From Parvibaculales bacterium (lineage in GTDB: Bacteria > Pseudomonadota > Alphaproteobacteria > RS24): 25,903 bases of DNA. The position numbers and the translations under genes are program-made. This document shows, in pieces, positions 10,441 through 20,000 of this stretch (the first letter of the stretch is position 1; each line of letters begins with the position of its first letter). The stretch spans positions 1 through 25,903 of the forward strand of contig JBPCVS010000016.1 of NCBI GenBank assembly GCA_051010295.1. The letters run 5' to 3'. Below the pieces are notes generated by a model that saw nothing but the letters and a program-made list of their open reading frames with translations, had not been told where the DNA came from and made no database searches.

Positions 10441-11637
10441 TTAATCTAGCTGTGCAAGGGCTTGTTGAAAATCAGCAAGCAAATCATCGCCATCTTCCAG
10501 CCCTACCGATACACGCAATGAAGCACCGCTAATACCTAATTCATGTTTGGCTGCTTCTTCCAACTTAAAATGAGTGGTGGTGGCAGGATGTGTAATCAGT
10601 GTTTTTGCATCACCGAGATTATTGGAAATTTTAGCAATGGTGAGCGCGTTTTCCAGTTTGAAAGCTTCGGCTTTGCCGCCTTTTATATCAAAAGCAATCA
10701 AATTGCCGCCGCGTTGCATTTGCGCCATCGCCAAATTATGTTGCGGGTGGGCTTTATCGGCGGGATAAAAAACCCGCTCAATTTTTTTATGCGCGCTCAA
10801 AAAATCGCATAATTTTTCGGCATTATCACAATGGGCATGCACGCGCAAAGCCAGTGTCTCTAGGGCTTTCACCATCACCCACGCATTAAAGGGGCTTAAA
10901 GATGGCCCTGTCTGGCGCAAAAAATTGGCCAATGTGTCGTGGATATAAGCCTCATGCCCAATAATAATACCACCCAAACAACGTCCCTGCCCGTCAATAT
11001 GTTTGGTGGCACTATAAACCACAATATCGGCACCAAACTCAAACGGCTTTTGCAAAATCGGGGTGGCAAATACATTATCAACCACCAGCAAAGCATCATT
11101 TTCATGCGCCAAATCAGCCACTGCGCGCATATCAATAATTTCCAGCACTGGATTAGAAGGCGTTTCTAAAAACAACATTTTGGTTTCGGGGCGCATGGCG
11201 GCTTTCCACGCTTGTATGTCGCGGCCATCAACCAATGTGCAATCAACGCCAAAACGCGGCAATAATGTTTCAACAACATAACGGCACGAGCCAAATAGCG
11301 CACGAGCAGCAACAATATGGTCGCCCGCTTGCACACAGCTCATCATAGAAGCTGTTACGGCCGCCATGCCAGTTGCGGTGGCACGCGCATCTAATTTGTG
11401 GCCGCATGTGCCAGTTTCTAGCGCAATCATGCGTGTTTCAAACATCCGCACAGTCGGATTACCAAAGCGCGAATAAATATAGCCATCTTCTTCTTCAGCA
11501 AAACGTGCGGCGGCTTGTTCGGCACTGTCATATACATAGCCAGAAGTTAAATAAAGTGCCTCGCTGGTTTCACCAAAAGCCGAACGATTTTGGCCCTCAT
11601 GCACCATATTGGTTTGGGTGTTATATTGTTTTTTCAT
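10441..11637 (-). CDS. metZ: O-succinylhomoserine sulfhydrylase
   Basis: Cys/Met-metabolism PLP motifs YSRFGNPT, LETPSNP and YSATKHIDGQGR; SAM riboswitch upstream. Confidence 0.92.
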   Translation of the reverse strand: MKKQYNTQTNMVHEGQNRSAFGETSEALYLTSGYVYDSAEQAAARFAEEEDGYIYSRFGNPTVRMFETRMIALETGTCGHKLDARATATGMAAVTASMMSCVQAGDHIVAARALFGSCRYVVETLLPRFGVDCTLVDGRDIQAWKAAMRPETKMLFLETPSNPVLEIIDMRAVADLAHENDALLVVDNVFATPILQKPFEFGADIVVYSATKHIDGQGRCLGGIIIGHEAYIHDTLANFLRQTGPSLSPFNAWVMVKALETLALRVHAHCDNAEKLCDFLSAHKKIERVFYPADKAHPQHNLAMAQMQRGGNLIAFDIKGGKAEAFKLENALTIAKISNNLGDAKTLITHPATTTHFKLEEAAKHELGISGASLRVSVGLEDGDDLLADFQQALAQLD

Positions 11638-11687: not shown

Positions 11688-11715
11688 AATAAAAAACCGG
11701 CCTGTGGCCGGTTTT
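11688..11715 (-). terminator. Intrinsic terminator in the metZ leader (riboswitch expression platform)
   Basis: Minus strand reads aaaaccggcc-aca-ggccggtttttt-att. Confidence 0.8.
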
Positions 11716-11725
11716 CGCCCGGCCA

Positions 11726-11779
11726 TTTTAGCTGTTTATTTAACGTGGCCGCAAGCCGACCGGCTCAAATTACCACGTT
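11726..11779 (-). ncRNA. SAM-II (SAM_alpha) riboswitch aptamer
   Basis: Minus strand reads aacgtggtaatttgagccggtcggcttgcggccacgttaaataaacagctaaaa. This has P1 aacgtgg/ccacgtt and the ATTTG, TTGC and 3' GCTAAA elements of the SAM-II consensus, and lies upstream of metZ. Recognised from memory of the consensus, not by a covariance-model search. Confidence 0.88.
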
Positions 11780-11784
11780 GGATA

Positions 11785-11813
11785 AGCATGTCTAAAAAAT
11801 CGGCGCACGTCAA
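11785..11813 (-). promoter_or_regulatory. sigma70-type promoter for riboswitch-metZ
   Basis: TTGACG (11813-11808, overlapping the lysS stop codon), a 17-nt spacer, then CATGCT (11790-11785). The predicted start site coincides with the aptamer 5' end. Confidence 0.7.
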
Positions 11814-13396
11814 GCCTGTTTTCGTGCCAAAGCCACATCAATCAGCGCGATGGTTTGGGCAATGCCATAGAGTGCCACAAAAGAGCCAAAACGCGGCCCT
11901 TGTTTTTGCCCCAACAAAACTTCGTATAATGTGCCAAACCAGCCGCGCAAATCATCTTCAAAATGCGCCTTGCCAATAGCATAAATCGCGCTTTGAATTG
12001 TTTCACCATCGGCTTTTTTCGGCAGTGCGTCCAGTGCCTCTTTAAGCGCGATAAGCGCGGTTTGTTCGGCACTATCTGGCGCACGAAAAGCTTTGTTGGG
12101 TGCTACAAAATCACGATAATAAGCCAGCGCGTAATCGGTTAAATTATCCAACAAAGGCTGGGTTTCGGGGCTGGCATCGGGCGCGTAGGCGACAATAAAA
12201 CCCCATAACACATTTTTATTTTCTGCATTGGACGCGCTGACAAGATTAAGCAGAAGCGCGAAACTCACCGATATATCCGCTTGGGGTGGCGCGCCATTGT
12301 GAATATGCCAAACGGGGTTGGCCAGCTGGTCGGCTGGTTCTTGTGTATGAAATTTATTAAGCAAGGCCAGATAATCATCCACCGCTTTGGGTATCACATC
12401 AAAATAAAGCCGCTTGGCTTTGCGCGGATTTTGAAACATATAAAGCGATAGGCTTTGCGGCGGCGCATAGCTGAGCCATTGTTCAATGGTCAGCCCATTG
12501 CCGCGTGATTTGGAAATTTTCTCGCCATTTTCATCAAGAAATAATTCATAAGAAAAATTTTCAGGCGGTGTGCCGCCCAAAGCCTGCACAATGCGCGAAG
12601 AAAGTTTTACCGATTCTGATAAATCTTTGCCCGCCATCTCATAATCAACCCCCAATGCCAGCCAGCGCATCGCCCAATCGGCCTTCCATTGCAGCTTGCA
12701 CGCCCCCCCCGTCACTTTGGTTTCAATCACTGCACCATTATCAGGGTGTTGATAATTTATAATGCCGCCCGCTTTATCAATGGGCGTTACTGGCACCATC
12801 AAAACGCGGCCTGTATCAGGGCAAATTGGCAAAAATGGCGAATAGGTGCGTTGACGTGCTTCGCCCAAAGTCGGCAAAATTATATCGCGGATTTTTTCAT
12901 AATGCGCCAATATCTGCAAAAGTGTCGCATCAAATGCGCCCGATTGATATTTGGCTGTCGCGCTGACAAATTCATAATCAAAGCCAAAACTATCCAAAAA
13001 AGCCTGCAGCCGCGCATTATTATGCGCCGCAAAACTATCATGCGTGCCAAATGGGTCTGGCACGGCGGTTAGCGGCTTGTCCAAATGCGCCGCCAGCATA
13101 TCACCATTGGGGATATTATCTGGCACTTTGCGCAACCCATCCATATCATCAGAAAAACACAGCAGGCGGGTTTTAATATCTGGCGCAAGCAGACAAAACG
13201 CATGGCGCACCATGCTGGTGCGCACCACCTCGCCAAAAGTGCCAATATGCGGCAGACCTGAAGGGCCATAGCCAGTTTCAAACACCGCCTCATTTTGGCT
13301 GGTATTTTCGCACCGCCGCAAAATTTTGCGGGCCTCCTCAAAAACCCATATTTTTGTGTCTTGCGCCAATGATTGAAGCGACATGACCATCTCCAT
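11810..13396 (-). CDS. lysS: Lysine--tRNA ligase, class I
   Basis: [12 protein letters not shown] (HIGH-like), KISKSRGN (KMSKS-like), WKADWAMRW and GPRFGSF. Start could be 13396, 13390 or 13384. Confidence 0.95.
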
Positions 13397-13502
13397 TTTT
13401 TACCCCTAAACTGCCTTTAGGTTTTGCAAATGTGCGGCGAACCTATCAGTCCGCATTTTATTGTCAATTGCCAAACGCCCATGATAACGGCATATAAGAC
13501 AG

Positions 13503-13940
13503 ATGAGCAATGCAATCCCCCAGTTGAACCCACACCAAGCTATGTTGGCTTGCCTAACATTGGTGATGGCAGTCAATGGTGCGCCAAGCACTAAAACCCG
13601 CGATTTATTGATGCGTTTGTGCGCCGCCACGCGGGGTTTTGCAATCATAATAGAGGAGGATACCATACAAAACGAAGCACAAATGGAGGCTATGACGCTT
13701 GATATTTTATCCGCCCCTGATGGTATGAATACATTATTGGAGCTGGCCGCACCAGTGCTGACAATGGAGGCGCGCCAATTAACTTATGCGTTGGCGGTGG
13801 ATTTTGTGCTGGCCAATAATAAGCTAACGCCAGAAGAAATGCGGGTGCTGGATATTCTGGCCGACACTTTCAAACTTGATAAACTTACCCGCGCCGCCAT
13901 TGACCGCGCCGCGCAAATCCGTTTGCAACCTTATTTTTAA
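13503..13940 (+). CDS. TerB-family (tellurite resistance-like) protein
   Basis: 145-aa helical protein with TYALAVDFVLAN..LTPEEMRVLDIL..LDKLTRAAIDR, resembling the stand-alone alphaproteobacterial TerB-family proteins; divergent from lysS. Confidence 0.7.
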   Translation: MSNAIPQLNPHQAMLACLTLVMAVNGAPSTKTRDLLMRLCAATRGFAIIIEEDTIQNEAQMEAMTLDILSAPDGMNTLLELAAPVLTMEARQLTYALAVDFVLANNKLTPEEMRVLDILADTFKLDKLTRAAIDRAAQIRLQPYF

Positions 13941-13944
13941 TGTT

Positions 13945-14049
13945 ATGCATGCTTTATCCACATTTTTTCTTTTGTTGTTTTTGTTGTTTGGGTTGCGTTT
14001 TATTTATTTTTCCACACTGGGATACGCATTTATTGCCGTTATTTTATAA
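13945..14049 (+). CDS. Putative 34-aa hydrophobic small protein, in frame with the GT2 (copy 1)
   Basis: MHALSTFFLLLFLLFGLRFIYFSTLGYAFIAVIL*. ATG lies 4 nt after the terB stop. Three of four differences from copy 2 within the ORF are synonymous in this frame. Confidence 0.45.
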   Translation: MHALSTFFLLLFLLFGLRFIYFSTLGYAFIAVIL

Positions 14050-14100
14050 TGTAGCTTCTGGCTTCTGGCATTATTTTGTCTGCCCTGTCAGAGTTGGTTT

Positions 14101-15591
14101 ATGGGTGAGGATGAAGACAGAGATAGTTTCTCTGATAGGGGAACGGATGGGTGGGATTTTTCAGATGATAATTCAGATGATGACTCACATGATGATTCAC
14201 AAGTCCCTGATACTCTAGAAGAAAGCACGATGGCTTATTTGCCTGCGGGTGCTTCTCATACACACCATAACAACATGGAACATCCTCATTTTTTACCTGC
14301 TTTTTTGGTTGTTCTTGTTTTTGGGTTGGTGTTTTTGGGTGCGGGCTTAATTGATGTGTTTGACAGCTTTCTAATATGCCTCTGGGGTGTGCATTTTTTT
14401 GGTGTATTGCCCCTATTACTGACACTGGAAACCCCAATCATTGCTTGGGGCAAGATAGATAAAAGCACGATAGATAACGCACATCATGATTTACCAATTT
14501 ATTCTATTTTAGTGCCAGTCTATCGGGAAGCCAATATGCTGTCCCAAATGGCCAAAGGTCTGGCCGCCCTTGATTATCCATCTGACCGATTGGATATTAT
14601 TATTTTGTTAGAAAGCGATGATAAGCGCACCTATCAGGCGGCACAGGCGATTAACTGGCCAGCTGGCACAAATTTGCTAGTGGTGCCTGATGGGGTGCTA
14701 CGCAATAAGCCACGTGCGTGTAATTATGGTCTAAAACAAGCACGCGGTGCGTTTTTGGTAATTTATGATGCTGAAGATATTCCCCACCCCCAACAATTAC
14801 GTGCCGCCATTGCCCGCTTTGAGGCAGACACTGACAAGCTTGCTTGCCTGCAATCGCCCCTATGTATTTTGCCCAACCATCATGGCTGGCTAGAAAGCCA
14901 TTTTCTGTTAGAATATAGACAGCTCTTTGGAGTTATTTTACCCGTTTTATGTATGTTTAATATGCCAATTCCATTGGGTGGAACCTCTAATCATTTCAAA
15001 ACCAGCATATTGCGCGACATTGGTGGCTGGGACCCATGGAATTTAACCGAAGATGCTGATATTGGCCTAAGGCTGGCATTGGAGGGCTATAAAATAGCCA
15101 TGATTGATGTGCCAACTTTTGAGAATGCACCCCATAGTGCAAAAATATGGATGCACCAACGCACCCGTGGGTTGAGTGGGCATATTCAAACATTGGGCAC
15201 ACATGGCTTTGTGTTTGATGATTGGATAATCAGGCGTGGCTTGCTGGCCACCCTATCAATGATAAGTATTTTATTGTGTCGTTTGCTCAGTGGCGTTCTC
15301 ACCATGTGTTGCGGGGTGCTTACCTTATGTGCTGTTTTGGGGATTCGCCCATGGCATTCTTCAACCATTTTTATATATATCGCATTAGGCGTTTATGTTG
15401 GTATCTTTGTTGTCAATATGCGGCTATTGCGTGATTTTCCTATCCGACACCGCTTATTTATTGTGTTCACAACGCCTTTTTATTGGCTGATGACCAACCC
15501 GGCTTTTGCCCGCGCCTGCTGGCGCATCGCAACTGGCAACCTAAAATGGATAAAAACACCACACAAACCACACACAGATACGATAAAATAA
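14101..15591 (+). CDS. Membrane GT2 glycosyltransferase, copy 1 (QRTRG variant)
   Basis: Motifs ILVPVYRE, KPRACNYGL, IYDAED (DxD-type), LGGTSNHF, GGWD..TEDADIG and WIKTPH with flanking TMs. The QxxRW motif reads QRTRG (GGG at 15169-15171). Confidence 0.9.
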   Translation: MGEDEDRDSFSDRGTDGWDFSDDNSDDDSHDDSQVPDTLEESTMAYLPAGASHTHHNNMEHPHFLPAFLVVLVFGLVFLGAGLIDVFDSFLICLWGVHFFGVLPLLLTLETPIIAWGKIDKSTIDNAHHDLPIYSILVPVYREANMLSQMAKGLAALDYPSDRLDIIILLESDDKRTYQAAQAINWPAGTNLLVVPDGVLRNKPRACNYGLKQARGAFLVIYDAEDIPHPQQLRAAIARFEADTDKLACLQSPLCILPNHHGWLESHFLLEYRQLFGVILPVLCMFNMPIPLGGTSNHFKTSILRDIGGWDPWNLTEDADIGLRLALEGYKIAMIDVPTFENAPHSAKIWMHQRTRGLSGHIQTLGTHGFVFDDWIIRRGLLATLSMISILLCRLLSGVLTMCCGVLTLCAVLGIRPWHSSTIFIYIALGVYVGIFVVNMRLLRDFPIRHRLFIVFTTPFYWLMTNPAFARACWRIATGNLKWIKTPHKPHTDTIK

Positions 15592-15607
15592 AATAAAGGA
15601 TTTTACT

Positions 15608-16792
15608 TTACACCTGCCGTTTGCGTAGCATTTCGGGCGTGAGTTGTGACAGATTACGCACGCCCATCAGCTTCATGCCCCGTTCTATTTCCGCTTGCAT
15701 ATTGCCAAGTGCTTTTTCCACACCAGCTTGCCCACCACCAGCGAGAGCATAAAGATACATGCGGCCGCCCGAGCAAGCCGTTGCGCCCAGTGCCATTGCT
15801 TTCAACACATGCGTGCCGCGCCGAATGCCACCATCAAGAATAATTTCAATATCACCACCAACCGCTTGCACAATTTCTTCTAGCTGGTCAAAAGGTGCGC
15901 GCCCGCCATCAAGCTGGCGGCCACCATGATTAGAAATCATAATAGCATCTGCGCCTAAACTGACAGCACGGCGAGCATCACTTACACTCATAACACCTTT
16001 GAGACAAAATTTACCGCCCCAGCTCTGGCGCAAATGGGCGGCATCATCCCAATTCATATTTTGGTCAAGCATGGTAGAAAAATAATCACTAATTGAAATG
16101 GCAATGTTTGAGCCTTGCCCGACATAATCTTTTAATTGCGATAGTTCAAATTTTTTGCGCAACAAATAATTGAGCGTCCATCTAGGTTTGATAGCAAATT
16201 CAAACAGGCTGTTGAGTGTGAGACGTGGCGGTGAAGTAAAACCAGTATGTAAATCGCGCTCACGATTGCCGCCTGTAATAGTATCCACAGTCAGGGTGAG
16301 AATATCAAATTTGGCTTGTTTAGCCATCTCCAACATGGCGGCATTGAGGGCTCTATCTTTGTGAAAATAAAATTGAAACATTTTAGGCGTGGTAATCAAT
16401 GCGCCAATCTCAGACAAGCCAACCGTGCCAAGCGAAGACACACCAAATAAAGTGTCATATTTCTCTGCCGCCCGTGCTACTGCGCGTTCGCCCTCATGGT
16501 GAAACAGGCGTTGCAATGCAGTCGGCGCACAAAATATGGGTAAGCCTAGGCGATGCCCCATCACCTGAACCGACATATCAATATCAGCCACACCCGCCAA
16601 TATGTTCGGCACTAAATCATAATCGTTAAAAGCTTGGCTGTTGCGCCGATAGGTCACCTCATCATCGGCCGCCCCATCAATATAATGAAAAATCGGTGCG
16701 GGCAAACGCTTGCGCGCCAATATGCGCAAATCATCAATATTTCTGCACTTTGCCAAAGATTGCGTCAATGAAAGGGGAAAATGGGGCATCAA
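15608..16792 (-). CDS. FMN-dependent alpha-hydroxy acid oxidase/dehydrogenase (LldD-like)
   Basis: Motifs FHYIDGAA, APTALQ, SNHGGRQLD and DGGIRRGTHVLKAMALGA. Substrate (lactate, glycolate or other) cannot be determined from the sequence. Confidence 0.9.
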   Translation of the reverse strand: MMPHFPLSLTQSLAKCRNIDDLRILARKRLPAPIFHYIDGAADDEVTYRRNSQAFNDYDLVPNILAGVADIDMSVQVMGHRLGLPIFCAPTALQRLFHHEGERAVARAAEKYDTLFGVSSLGTVGLSEIGALITTPKMFQFYFHKDRALNAAMLEMAKQAKFDILTLTVDTITGGNRERDLHTGFTSPPRLTLNSLFEFAIKPRWTLNYLLRKKFELSQLKDYVGQGSNIAISISDYFSTMLDQNMNWDDAAHLRQSWGGKFCLKGVMSVSDARRAVSLGADAIMISNHGGRQLDGGRAPFDQLEEIVQAVGGDIEIILDGGIRRGTHVLKAMALGATACSGGRMYLYALAGGGQAGVEKALGNMQAEIERGMKLMGVRNLSQLTPEMLRKRQV

Positions 16793-16822
16793 ACCAGCCT
16801 TATTTATGCTTTGCTGAGATTA

Positions 16823-18064
16823 TCAGAAATCTTGCTTGAAATGTTTGGATAATTTTAATCCTTGCGCCTGATAATGCGATTTCAAACCATCACCATAAAG
16901 CTTTTCTGGTGTTTCGGTAAGACGTTCATAAACCAACCGCCCAATAATTTGGCCGTGTTCAACAATAAAGGGCACTTCACGCGAGCGCACTTCCAGCACC
17001 GCATGGGCGCGGCCATCGCCCGCCTTTTGTGCGCCAAGCCCTTCTGCACCAAATCCAGGATCAAAAAACCCCGCATAATGCACACGAAACTCACCCATAA
17101 GAGGGTTAAAAGGTATCATCTCTGCCGCATGGGTGGGCGGAATTGTGACCGCCTCACGCGAGGCCAGAATATAAAATTCATCGGGGTCAAGGATAATCTG
17201 CTGGTCGGCGCGATGATAAATAGGTTCCCAATATTGCCGCACATCAAGGCAATCGGGCGCATCTACATCAATCAATCCCGCATGACGCTTGGCGCGATAG
17301 CCAATAATATCTTTATTATGCGTGCTATCACCAGCCTTGCTAGCTTGTAAATTGATGGAAAGTGCCAGACCATTATCAATATCAGCCTCGCCATCCACCA
17401 GCCCGATTGTGTGTTGCAACTGGCGAATATCATCATCACAGCTGGTTGATGGCCCGCGCCGAAAACGAATTTGCGACAGGCGCGAGCCAGCACGCACTAA
17501 TATCGGGAAAGTGCGCGGCGTTACTTCCAAATAAAGCGCGCCCTTATATCCGCCACACACTGTATCAAAGGCTGTGCCGAAATCGGTAATCACGCGTGTA
17601 AATACATCAATTCGGCCAGTTGAGCTTTTGGGGTTAGCAAAAGCGGTAATGCGTTCGGGTAGATTGAGCGATTCTAGCAGTGGCACCAAATAAACGCATC
17701 CGGTTTCTAACACCGCGCCCTCGCGCAAATCAATCTCGTGATAGGTTAGTAATTTCAATTTTTCTTGCACAGTGGCTTTAGCCCCGGGCAGAAAGCTGGC
17801 GCGGATGCGATAAGCCGTGCGCCCCAATCGTAAGTCAAGACTGGCTGGTTGTATCTGCTCGGCAACAATCGGCTCATTTGACAAAATTTGTTTTTCGCGC
17901 ACCATATTGACAATGCCGTGCGCGGGCAAAATGCCTGCTACATGGCCAGCCGCATGCTCTGCGCTGGCGGCGGTGGCCGTGCTGGTGGATTGGGATGTTT
18001 TTTCTGCTTCTCCCAGCCCGTTTTTGTCGAAAGACAAATTTGATAATGGCGCGTCTGCTGGCAT
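16823..18064 (-). CDS. dcd: 2'-deoxycytidine 5'-triphosphate deaminase (two-domain alphaproteobacterial type)
   Basis: Motifs QIQPASLDLRLG, NPKSSTGRIDVFTR, EFRVHYAGFFDPGFG and YQAQGLKLSKHF; aaggag SD upstream of ATG 18064. Confidence 0.9.
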   Translation of the reverse strand: MPADAPLSNLSFDKNGLGEAEKTSQSTSTATAASAEHAAGHVAGILPAHGIVNMVREKQILSNEPIVAEQIQPASLDLRLGRTAYRIRASFLPGAKATVQEKLKLLTYHEIDLREGAVLETGCVYLVPLLESLNLPERITAFANPKSSTGRIDVFTRVITDFGTAFDTVCGGYKGALYLEVTPRTFPILVRAGSRLSQIRFRRGPSTSCDDDIRQLQHTIGLVDGEADIDNGLALSINLQASKAGDSTHNKDIIGYRAKRHAGLIDVDAPDCLDVRQYWEPIYHRADQQIILDPDEFYILASREAVTIPPTHAAEMIPFNPLMGEFRVHYAGFFDPGFGAEGLGAQKAGDGRAHAVLEVRSREVPFIVEHGQIIGRLVYERLTETPEKLYGDGLKSHYQAQGLKLSKHFKQDF

Positions 18065-18170
18065 AATAAATCTCCTTCTACCTACCTACTACATACGAAG
18101 CGCAATAGCATGACACTAATATGATTCTTTAACAGATTTCCCCAACAACCGCACAAGTATCGCAAATCCT

Positions 18171-19664
18171 TTACTTTATTTTATTGGGCCTGTGTGTGCC
18201 TGTATGTGGTTTGTGTGGTGTTTTTATCCATTTTAGGTTGCCGGTTGCGATGCGCCAGCAGGCGCGGGCAAAAGCAGGGTTAGTCATCAGCCAATAAAAA
18301 GGCGTTGTGAACACAATAAATAAGCGGTGTCGGATAGGAAAATCACGCAATAGCCGCATATTGACAACAAAGATGCCAACATAAACGCCTAATGCGATAT
18401 ATATAAAAATGGTTGAAGAATGCCATGGACGAATCCCCAAAACAGCACATAAGGTAAGCACTCCACAGCACATGGTGAGAACACCACTGAGCAAACGACA
18501 CAATAAAATACTTATCATTGATAGGGTGGCCAGCAAGCCACGCCTGATTATCCAATCATCAAACACAAAGCCATGTGTGCCCAATGTTTGAATATGCCCA
18601 CTCAACCAACGGGTGCGCTGGTGCATCCATATTTTTACACTATGGGGTGCATTCTCAAAAGTTGGCACATCAATCATGGCTATTTTATAGCCCTCCAATG
18701 CCAGCCTTAGGCCAATATCAGCATCTTCGGTTAAATTCCATGGGTCCCAGCCACCAATGGCGCGCAATATGCTGGTTTTGAAATGATTAGAGGTGCCACC
18801 CAATGGAATTGGCATATTAAACATACATAAAACGGGTAAAATAACCCCAAAGAGCTGTCTATATTCTAACAGAAAATGGCTTTCTAGCCAGCCATGATGG
18901 TTGGGCAAAATACATAAGGGCGATTGCAGGCAAGCAAGCTTGTCAGTGTCTGTCTCAAAGCGGGCAATGGCGGCACGTAATTGTTGGGGATGGGGAATAT
19001 CTTCAGCATCATAAATTACCAAAAACGCACCGCGTGCTTGTTTTAGACCATAATTACACGCACGTGGCTTATTGCGTAGCACCCCATCAGGCACCACCAA
19101 CAAATTTGTGCCAGCTGGCCAGTTAATCGCCTGTGCCGCCTGATAGGTGCGCTTATCATCGCTTTCTAACAAAATAATAATATCCAATCGGTCGGATGGA
19201 TAATCAAGGGCGGCCAGACCTTTGGCCATTTGTGACAGCATATTGGCTTCCCGATAGACTGGCACTAAAATAGAATAAATTGGCAAATCATGATGTGCGT
19301 CATCTATCGTGCTTTTATCTATTGTGCCCCAAGCAATGATTGGGGTTTCCAGTGTCAGTAAGAGGGGCAATACACCAAAAAAATGCACACCCCAGAGGCA
19401 TATCAGAAAGCTGTCAAACACATCAATTAAGCCCGCACCCAAAAACACCAACCCAAAAACAAGAACAACCAAAAAAGCGGGCAAAAAATGAGGCTGTTCC
19501 ATGTTGTTATGGTGCCTATGAGAAGCACCCGCAGGCAAATAAGCCATCGCGCTTTCTTCTAGAGTATCAGGGACTTGTGAATCATCATGCGAATTATCAT
19601 CTGAAAAATCCCATCCATCGGTTCCCCTATCAGAGAACCTATCTCTGTCTTCATCCTCACCCAT
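18171..19664 (-). CDS. Membrane GT2 glycosyltransferase, copy 2 (canonical QRTRW)
   Basis: Same motifs as copy 1; intact QxxRW (TGG at 18608-18606). Confidence 0.92.
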   Translation of the reverse strand: MGEDEDRDRFSDRGTDGWDFSDDNSHDDSQVPDTLEESAMAYLPAGASHRHHNNMEQPHFLPAFLVVLVFGLVFLGAGLIDVFDSFLICLWGVHFFGVLPLLLTLETPIIAWGTIDKSTIDDAHHDLPIYSILVPVYREANMLSQMAKGLAALDYPSDRLDIIILLESDDKRTYQAAQAINWPAGTNLLVVPDGVLRNKPRACNYGLKQARGAFLVIYDAEDIPHPQQLRAAIARFETDTDKLACLQSPLCILPNHHGWLESHFLLEYRQLFGVILPVLCMFNMPIPLGGTSNHFKTSILRAIGGWDPWNLTEDADIGLRLALEGYKIAMIDVPTFENAPHSVKIWMHQRTRWLSGHIQTLGTHGFVFDDWIIRRGLLATLSMISILLCRLLSGVLTMCCGVLTLCAVLGIRPWHSSTIFIYIALGVYVGIFVVNMRLLRDFPIRHRLFIVFTTPFYWLMTNPAFARACWRIATGNLKWIKTPHKPHTGTHRPNKIK

Positions 19665-19715
19665 AAACCAACTCTGACAGGGCAGGCAAAATAATGCCAG
19701 AAGCCAGAAGCTACA

Positions 19716-19820
19716 TTATAAAATAACGGCAATAAATGCGCACCCCAGTGTGGAGAAGTAAATAAAACGCAACCCAAACAACAAAAACAACAAAAGAAAA
19801 AATGTGGATAAAGCATGCAT
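19716..19820 (-). CDS. Putative 34-aa hydrophobic small protein (copy 2)
   Basis: MHALSTFFLLLFLLFGLRFIYFSTLGCAFIAVIL*, in frame with GT2 copy 2. Confidence 0.45.
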   Translation of the reverse strand: MHALSTFFLLLFLLFGLRFIYFSTLGCAFIAVIL

Positions 19821-20000
19821 AACATTAAAATATATGAAATTATCTAAGCTACATTAGAAAAAATAGATTTTAAGCAATCTAGCGTTGCCGTCTAAAGGCT
19901 GATACAATGCCGCCATGTTTCGCTCGTGTTATGCAATCATTATTTACAAAATTATCGCTATTGCCCTTATTGTTCGCTCGCATTTTGTGCGTGGTGCGTG

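Follow-up and report, generated by a model that had tools for sequence, protein, structure and literature searches.

A probably crippling tryptophan-to-glycine change in the QxxRW motif of one of two inverted membrane GT2 synthase genes in a Parvibaculales bacterium

In hyaluronan synthases, the tryptophan of the QxxRW motif positions the acceptor sugar, according to the part of PMC11750622 that deals with this motif, and an excerpt of PMC8306620 describes contacts of the tryptophan with the terminal residues of the acceptor chain. Both agree with the role in stacking on or positioning the acceptor sugar that an earlier note on the DNA studied here had assigned to this residue. For chitin synthase, an excerpt of PMC5412288 reports that the relevance of the QRRRW motif was shown by site-directed mutagenesis. 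The cellulose synthase BcsA combines a GT-A domain, which carries the D, DxD, TED and QxxRW motifs, with a fused transmembrane part. At the genetic level, variation by recombination between inverted gene copies is known from the sap inversion of Campylobacter fetus, in which only one of several cassettes at a time is placed under the single promoter.

Herein, we analysed a stretch of 25,903 nucleotides (the window), which is contig JBPCVS010000016.1, positions 1 to 25,903 of the forward strand, from the Parvibaculales bacterium GCA_051010295.1 (GTDB lineage Bacteria; Pseudomonadota; Alphaproteobacteria; RS24). The source genome is a metagenome bin of 1.43 Mb in 204 contigs, with a completeness of 91%, and it contains exactly two matches to a GT2 gene, both of them in the window. 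GT2 copy 1 (14101..15591, + strand) encodes a protein of 496 aa (P0001) and GT2 copy 2 (18171..19664, - strand) one of 497 aa (P0002), each identified by its translation, its matches to the Pfam GT2 families and synteny. The two genes are convergent, and each lies in one arm of an inverted duplication whose unit is about 1.67 kb long. The left arm (13935..15603, + strand, the latter end being approximate) comprises 166 nt of upstream sequence, the whole of copy 1 and roughly 12 nt beyond the stop codon of this gene; the right arm (18163..19830, - strand, with 18163 approximate) is the mirror unit carrying copy 2. Two genes lie between the arms. One is lldD (15608..16792, - strand) for an FMN-dependent alpha-hydroxy-acid (L-lactate-type) dehydrogenase (Pfam FMN_dh, E 5e-127), for which the NCBIfam LldD-like match is below the equivalog cut-off. 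The other is dcd (16823..18064, - strand) for the long form of dCTP deaminase (Pfam DCD_N/DCD_C; NCBIfam NF005734, 557 bits against a cut-off of 283), which is co-directional with copy 2. The upstream neighbour of copy 1 is hyp145 (13503..13940, + strand), an ORF of 145 aa that matched no Pfam or NCBIfam family, and the duplication begins at its stop codon. In relatives, too, hyp145 (32-57% identity there) is conserved next to the GT2 gene, on its upstream side, and it could be a functional partner of the GT2 synthase. The GC content is 0.42-0.44 in the GT2 arms (14001-15000 and 18001-20000), lower than the 0.48-0.52 of the surrounding genes. Scanning with Rfam revealed no RNA element within the arms or next to them, and there are no tRNAs.

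The difference at the motif was evident from both strands. Copy 1 reads caa cgc acc cgt ggg ttg on the + strand (15157-15174), with GGG at 15169-15171, and copy 2 reads cag cgc acc cgt tgg ttg on the - strand (18620-18603), with TGG at 18608-18606. The five motif codons (15157..15171 in copy 1, 18606..18620 in copy 2) encode QRTRG, ending in G357, and QRTRW, ending in W353, and the translations around them are HQRTRGLSGH and HQRTRWLSGH, respectively. The changed base is 15169, which is G in copy 1 and T in copy 2. These readings bear out the pair of motifs given by the earlier note, and the alignment of the copies confirms that they do not differ in DAED or TED.

Both copies matched the Pfam families Glyco_trans_2_3, Glyco_tranf_2_3 and Glycos_transf_2 above the cut-offs. 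An AlphaFold2 model of copy 2, built on a 63-sequence alignment (pLDDT 83.4, pTM 0.85), predicted two N-terminal and several C-terminal membrane helices around the GT-A domain. In this model W353 lies in helix 343-365, so that copy 2 carries QxxRW on the interface helix, whereas copy 1 has QRTRG instead. The residues of DAED (D219, E221 and D222) and TED (E313 and D314) are invariant across the 63 sequences. The best Foldseek matches were the BcsA proteins of E. coli and Rhodobacter, the hyaluronan synthases of Chlorella virus (CvHAS) and Xenopus (XlHAS1), PcManGT and yeast Chs1, with a probability of 1.00 to BcsA, CvHAS, XlHAS1 and Chs1 and TMq values of 0.41-0.59. By modelled fold and by motifs, the protein belongs to the membrane GT2 synthases of the BcsA, hyaluronan synthase and chitin synthase type.

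BcsA (PDB 4hg6, 4p00, 5ej1 and 9b8v) shares with the window protein the arrangement of GT-A domain, motifs and fused transmembrane part. It is the best Foldseek match (E 1e-14 to 1e-13, TMq 0.57-0.59), and its QRGRW aligns on the window QRTRW. However, the identity is approximately 18-21%, and the window protein has neither a PilZ domain nor a BcsB partner nearby; the window GT2 is not a BcsA orthologue. The hyaluronan synthases (Chlorella virus 7sp7/7sp8, Xenopus 8smm) and Chs1 (8k3q) have the fold class and the QxxRW tryptophan in common with it, and CvHAS is of similar size (about 500 aa), but their identity to it is 12-14%. The window family ends in a conserved W-x-K-T-P-H and not in the WGTSGRK/R gating loop described in an excerpt of PMC11750622; as a guess, the one may correspond to the other. 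The best NCBIfam match, over residues 120-461 and including the GT and TM regions, is the PgaC/IcaA poly-beta-1,6-GlcNAc synthase (TIGR03937), yet at 63.4 against 422.3 bits it misses the equivalog cut-off, as do the CelA model TIGR03030 (55.4 against 699.1) and NF008558 (49.2 against 992), and there are no pgaABD-like genes among the scanned window ORFs. Among solved chains, PcManGT (6yv7) and BcsA are nearest in sequence.

The subfamily comprises 2069 library representatives at E <= 1e-30. Many of its members, relatives of 620-700 aa, have an N-terminal extension of 200-300 aa, and the window copies have an acidic low-complexity N-terminus in its place. MshEN is a c-di-GMP receptor domain, and six MshEN domains precede the GT2 part of P0085 (1281 aa), the one such protein among ten scanned.

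The tryptophan was present in every homologue examined, as the alignment check suggested by the earlier note required: in all 27 motif-covering homologues found at loci of other genomes, in 149 of 149 library representatives (P0008-P0156) and in all four proteins of the same 90% cluster that come from other assemblies and cover the site. The fifth member of this cluster is a fragment of 114 aa (P0005) that does not include the motif. Among P0008-P0156, the rule is Q-R-x-R-W with a varying x, apart from one QHTRW, and W353 is one of the 24 invariant columns of the 63-sequence alignment. Glycine occurs in one of 181 site-covering sequences, P0001 (copy 1) itself; the G allele is private to the source assembly and was not seen in the related strains examined. 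Given the invariance of the tryptophan in homologues and its described role at the acceptor, it is reasonable to infer that the copy 1 protein would be impaired or altered.

The two arms align over 1647 nt with 96.6% identity, 43 mismatches and 3 gaps, as determined by a repeat search, blastn and base-by-base alignment, a similarity far above chance. The homology extends 1,234 nt upstream of the motif codon (13935-15168), in keeping with the approximately 1.2 kb of the earlier note, and about 406-430 nt downstream. Differences are scattered evenly along the arms, which agree without interruption over 124 nt at most, and the base-by-base alignment revealed no recent conversion tract. A 12-nt in-frame indel (14173-14184) lies in the acidic N-terminal repeat, and a 10-nt indel in a CACA-rich tract (15568-15582 / 18189-18208), together with substitutions, gives the copies their own C-terminal tails, DTIK and GTHRPNKIK. 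The codon differences comprise 28 synonymous and 11 nonsynonymous ones, corresponding to a dS of 0.107, a dN of 0.011 and a dN/dS of 0.10 by the Nei-Gojobori method. Since the differences are mostly synonymous, both copies were subject to purifying selection during most of the time since they separated, until recently. When the changes were polarised with four other-strain proteins, 7-8 were private to copy 1 (S9, the 4-aa insert, T43, K118, N126, A347, G357 and the tail) and 4-5 to copy 2 (N24, R50, Q57, T238 and the tail). The change from W to G is the only difference between the copies in a conserved column. No other sign of decay, that is, no stop and no frameshift, was seen in the sequence and translation of copy 1.

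The relatives, of which the named ones are uncultured 'Rhodobiaceae', Parvibaculaceae and Parvibaculales bins, bear on the history of the locus. A GT2 match was found in 29 of 40 genomes, 24 of them with matches of the full-length type (E <= 1e-59); 23 of these 24 have a single GT2 locus, and G029 adds weak matches. The gene order of the family is metC-, then dcd+ (lldD+) GT2- hyp145- lysS+, then pyrD+, where the signs denote strands. GT2 lies between dcd/lldD and hyp145 in 12 of the 17 loci spanning the site, and pyrD comes next in all 15 loci reaching past lysS, the G001 locus excepted. The order in the window is metC-, then lysS- hyp145+ GT2_1+ lldD- dcd-, then GT2_2-, then pyrD+. Copy 1 keeps both ancestral neighbours, with hyp145 upstream and lldD/dcd convergent, and copy 2 lies exactly at the new junction of dcd and pyrD, which is seen in none of the relatives examined.

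Against the order in the relatives (loci L036-L067), the block of five genes lysS-hyp145-GT2-lldD-dcd (11810-18064) has been inverted with respect to metC and pyrD. A SAM_alpha riboswitch (RF00521; 71 bits, gathering score 36) was found at 11707-11786 (- strand), upstream of a gene for a Cys/Met-metabolism PLP enzyme (10441-11637). It lies within the 172 nt that separate this gene from the lysS stop, which is the left edge of the block inversion.

G001, the only other genome of the genus (L032, G001:C2 1-7600), has one GT2, which has moved to after lysS and is 46% identical, among neighbouring genes that are mostly 72-82% identical (hyp145, 57%); no pyrD was found in the 16 kb compared. Given this relocated and divergent single GT2, the region is rearrangement-prone in this genus. 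We also considered whether the orders in the window and in G001 arose from one ancestor by recombination between GT2 copies, but no one- or two-step path fits both. A 44-aa match in G004 was ruled out as a gene remnant, the contig ending 19 nt beyond it. Elsewhere among the relatives, the GT2 homologue of L017 (G012:C24, 1203-2382) is broken into two overlapping parts that lie in different frames (query 96-203 and 194-488), as would be expected of a frameshifted gene or a pseudogene. Four other loci (L047, L049, L053 and L064) gave no GT2 match (E <= 1e-8) between lldD/dcd and hyp145/lysS, where the gaps are 1.1-1.6 kb, and GT2 may have been lost or be very divergent in these relatives.

We consider the best explanation, with a probability of roughly 0.55, to be a recent, assembly-private and probably crippling missense change in a redundant GT2 duplicate. 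A whole membrane GT2 gene with its 166 nt of upstream sequence was duplicated in inverted orientation in this lineage, the relatives having one copy, and both copies remained under purifying selection. Copy 1, at the ancestral position, would subsequently have gained the private T-to-G change that replaces the invariant, acceptor-positioning tryptophan of QxxRW by glycine. By analogy with other enzymes, the most likely consequence would be a catalytically crippled or strongly weakened copy 1 enzyme, whose loss would be tolerated because copy 2 is intact. The outcome would be the first step in the decay of a presumably redundant paralogue. A counter-point to decay is that copy 1 is intact apart from its few private amino acid changes.

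Next in standing is an assembly artefact, an alternative that is unlikely but has to be reckoned with: the G at 15169 may be a consensus error, or two strain haplotypes of a collapsed inverted repeat may have been split between the arms, in which case the comparison of copy 1 with copy 2 would partly be one of strain A with strain B. Evidence that bears on it comes from Logan contigs of four runs (X1-X4) of three studies (cave, sponge and 'organism A'). None of these is the source sample, since all four share differences from the window in its unique middle part. In all four runs, contigs end at the four repeat ends (13961, 15548-15587, 18180-18229 and 19804) and the depth of the arm pieces is about double that of the flanks; the inverted duplication is therefore real in the X1-X4 strains and not an artefact of the source bin. 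X1 and X2 also share with the window its copy-specific C-terminal tails and its arm ends, so that the two-copy structure itself is real.

At the motif, the spanning piece of the runs was placed on arm 2, and no piece of any run was placed on 14989-15215, which holds the copy 1 motif. Uncovered parts such as 14535-15442 in X1 could be taken for absence but are read instead as the placement of a collapsed repeat. The depth of the motif piece and of the flanks was 148 and ~79 in X1, 151 and ~67 in X2, 260 and 109-137 in X3, and 77 and 36-41 in X4. The X1 piece (1084 nt, 18200-19283) has 11 differences from arm 2, nine of which are the window arm-1 letters and none of which is at 18608, and the X2 piece (365 nt, 18469-18833) has a single difference, at 18760. 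Given the approximately twofold depth and the lack of a difference at 18608, the motif reads W in X1 and X2, apparently in both copies. By our estimate, arms that differ as those of the window do would leave about half of the 31-mers single-copy, with a depth nearer 1.5x. The motif pieces of X3 and X4 have 18 and 17 differences, 2 of which are listed, and W would be expected in these runs from the matching P0003-type proteins, whose HIGP tail is encoded by the loose ends at 15587 and 18180. The Logan contigs drop rare variants, so they show W to be present but are weak evidence for the absence of G.

Three further observations were made on the other strains. Strains of the X3/X4 type have a third C-terminal tail (HIGPIK), apparently in both arms. 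Two proteins of the 90% cluster are truncated: the frame of P0005 is lost after residue 107, and P0007 (306 aa) starts inside the gene. Both may be broken second copies in other strains. A search for relatives of P0002 in genome contigs and in metagenome contigs found none, and a 32-nt degenerate motif pattern accepting either allele had 0 matches in the metagenome contigs.

The artefact explanation draws support from the fragmented state of the bin (204 contigs, 91% completeness) and from the state of the arms in the related runs. There, the 3' 1.1 kb of the arms seems to be identical between the copies, being one piece at ~2x depth, and in the X1-type piece window alleles of arm 1 (at 9 sites) and of arm 2 (at 13 sites) are interleaved. 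Each window arm is ~1-1.4% from this piece, similar to the strain-level difference of ~0.6-1% in the unique part. The ratio of 28 synonymous to 11 nonsynonymous differences would also fit allelic divergence between strains. Against a single-base error stand the changes private to arm 1 at 15140 and 15159, which are within 30 nt of 15169 and thus on the same reads, and the longest identical inter-arm stretch, at 124 nt, is short enough for phasing by reads or large k-mers. Taken as they stand, the arms appear to be homogenised in the sister strains but not in the source assembly.

More doubtful is the retention of copy 1 as an altered paralogue, in which the QRTRG protein would be kept as a non-processive transferase or one with a different acceptor, or as a protein without activity that assists or regulates the W copy. 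Apart from this motif copy 1 is intact, with all other catalytic motifs identical to those of copy 2, and the private changes V to A (347) and W to G (357) cluster in one helix. PcManGT has R-A-Q-H aligned where the window family has R-T-R-W, which implies that a GT2 of related fold can work without that tryptophan. The overall dN/dS of 0.10 could likewise speak for retention, but it is dominated by the period before the change from W to G. There is also no sign that G has been kept over time, because it occurs in 1 of the 181 site-covering sequences and was not read in related strains.

The earlier note had proposed an OFF/ON allele pair, and such a switch, in which crossover or gene conversion between the inverted arms would move the W/G codon between differently expressed loci and so produce glycan variation, we consider improbable. 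Inverted repeats bounding an invertible segment are indeed present (arms 13935-15603 and 18163-19830), with 1.2 kb of inverted homology upstream of the codon, and the region is rearranged in this genus. The arms seem to be homogenised in related strains, so inter-arm conversion seems to occur. The distal upstream contexts differ, copy 1 following hyp145 and copy 2 diverging from pyrD and being co-directional with dcd-lldD. The proximal region is, however, common to both copies: the 166 nt before the genes (13935..14100, + strand; mirror 19830-19665) have 5 mismatches between the arms, the start regions are identical, and both arms contain a TATAAT 50 nt before the ATG (14045-14050 in copy 1, 19720-19715 in copy 2). 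This hexamer is a consensus match only, and the promoter/terminator scan, with 19 promoter-like sites against 14.8 +/- 4.0 expected, was given no weight. The arrangement thus differs from one with a single promoter or a promoter inside the invertible part. As to the consequence of a crossover, the geometry of the earlier note was right: through an exchange upstream of the codon, the 3' parts of the genes would change places and lldD-dcd would be inverted. The new promoter context would, however, be limited to the distal sequence, the proximal 166 nt being the same.

A reciprocal crossover would, moreover, always leave one W and one G gene, and this would amount to switching only if one locus were silent, for which the present analysis gave no evidence. 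None of the 21 larger window ORFs that were scanned encodes a recombinase, and no inversion joints were found in the X1-X4 contigs, which stop at the repeat ends and could hardly show one. The window arms are without a recent conversion tract, as their longest identical run of 124 nt reflects, other strains did not show the G allele, their motif piece bearing W at ~2x flank depth (W being read in X1 and X2), and a dN/dS of 0.10 is what two genes constrained until recently would give, in contrast to an OFF allele kept for long. The C. fetus sap system resembles the locus in its two inverted homologous genes with a long shared 5' sequence, in which a crossover swaps the 3' parts and inverts the middle, but the window differs from it in that each copy has its own, near-identical sequence upstream, the two genes converge, and contigs that stop at the repeats show no inversion. 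The proposed allele pair was therefore not supported, given the same proximal upstream sequence, the conservation of one W and one G, the lack of a recombinase among the scanned ORFs and the G not seen in other strains; the change looks like a spare copy beginning to decay and not like an on/off switch. Just as improbable is a W-less copy kept to work together with the intact synthase, be it as a subunit that is catalytically silent or has an altered acceptor, or else as a reservoir allele, with arm conversion setting the number of active synthase genes (0, 1 or 2), which, if true, would mean heritable surface-glycan variation without a dedicated recombinase.

If the early decay of a redundant duplicate is the correct explanation, the locus represents an ordinary young gene duplicate taking its first disabling mutation, and a duplicated GT2 synthase with one motif-mutated copy would hold nothing surprising for a specialist. 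A larger significance would arise only if the G copy were maintained or exchanged in a regulated way. The locus also shows a gene-sized inverted duplication at the edge of a block inversion, and copy 1 would provide a natural W-to-G variant of QxxRW in an uncharacterised, widespread membrane GT2 subfamily.
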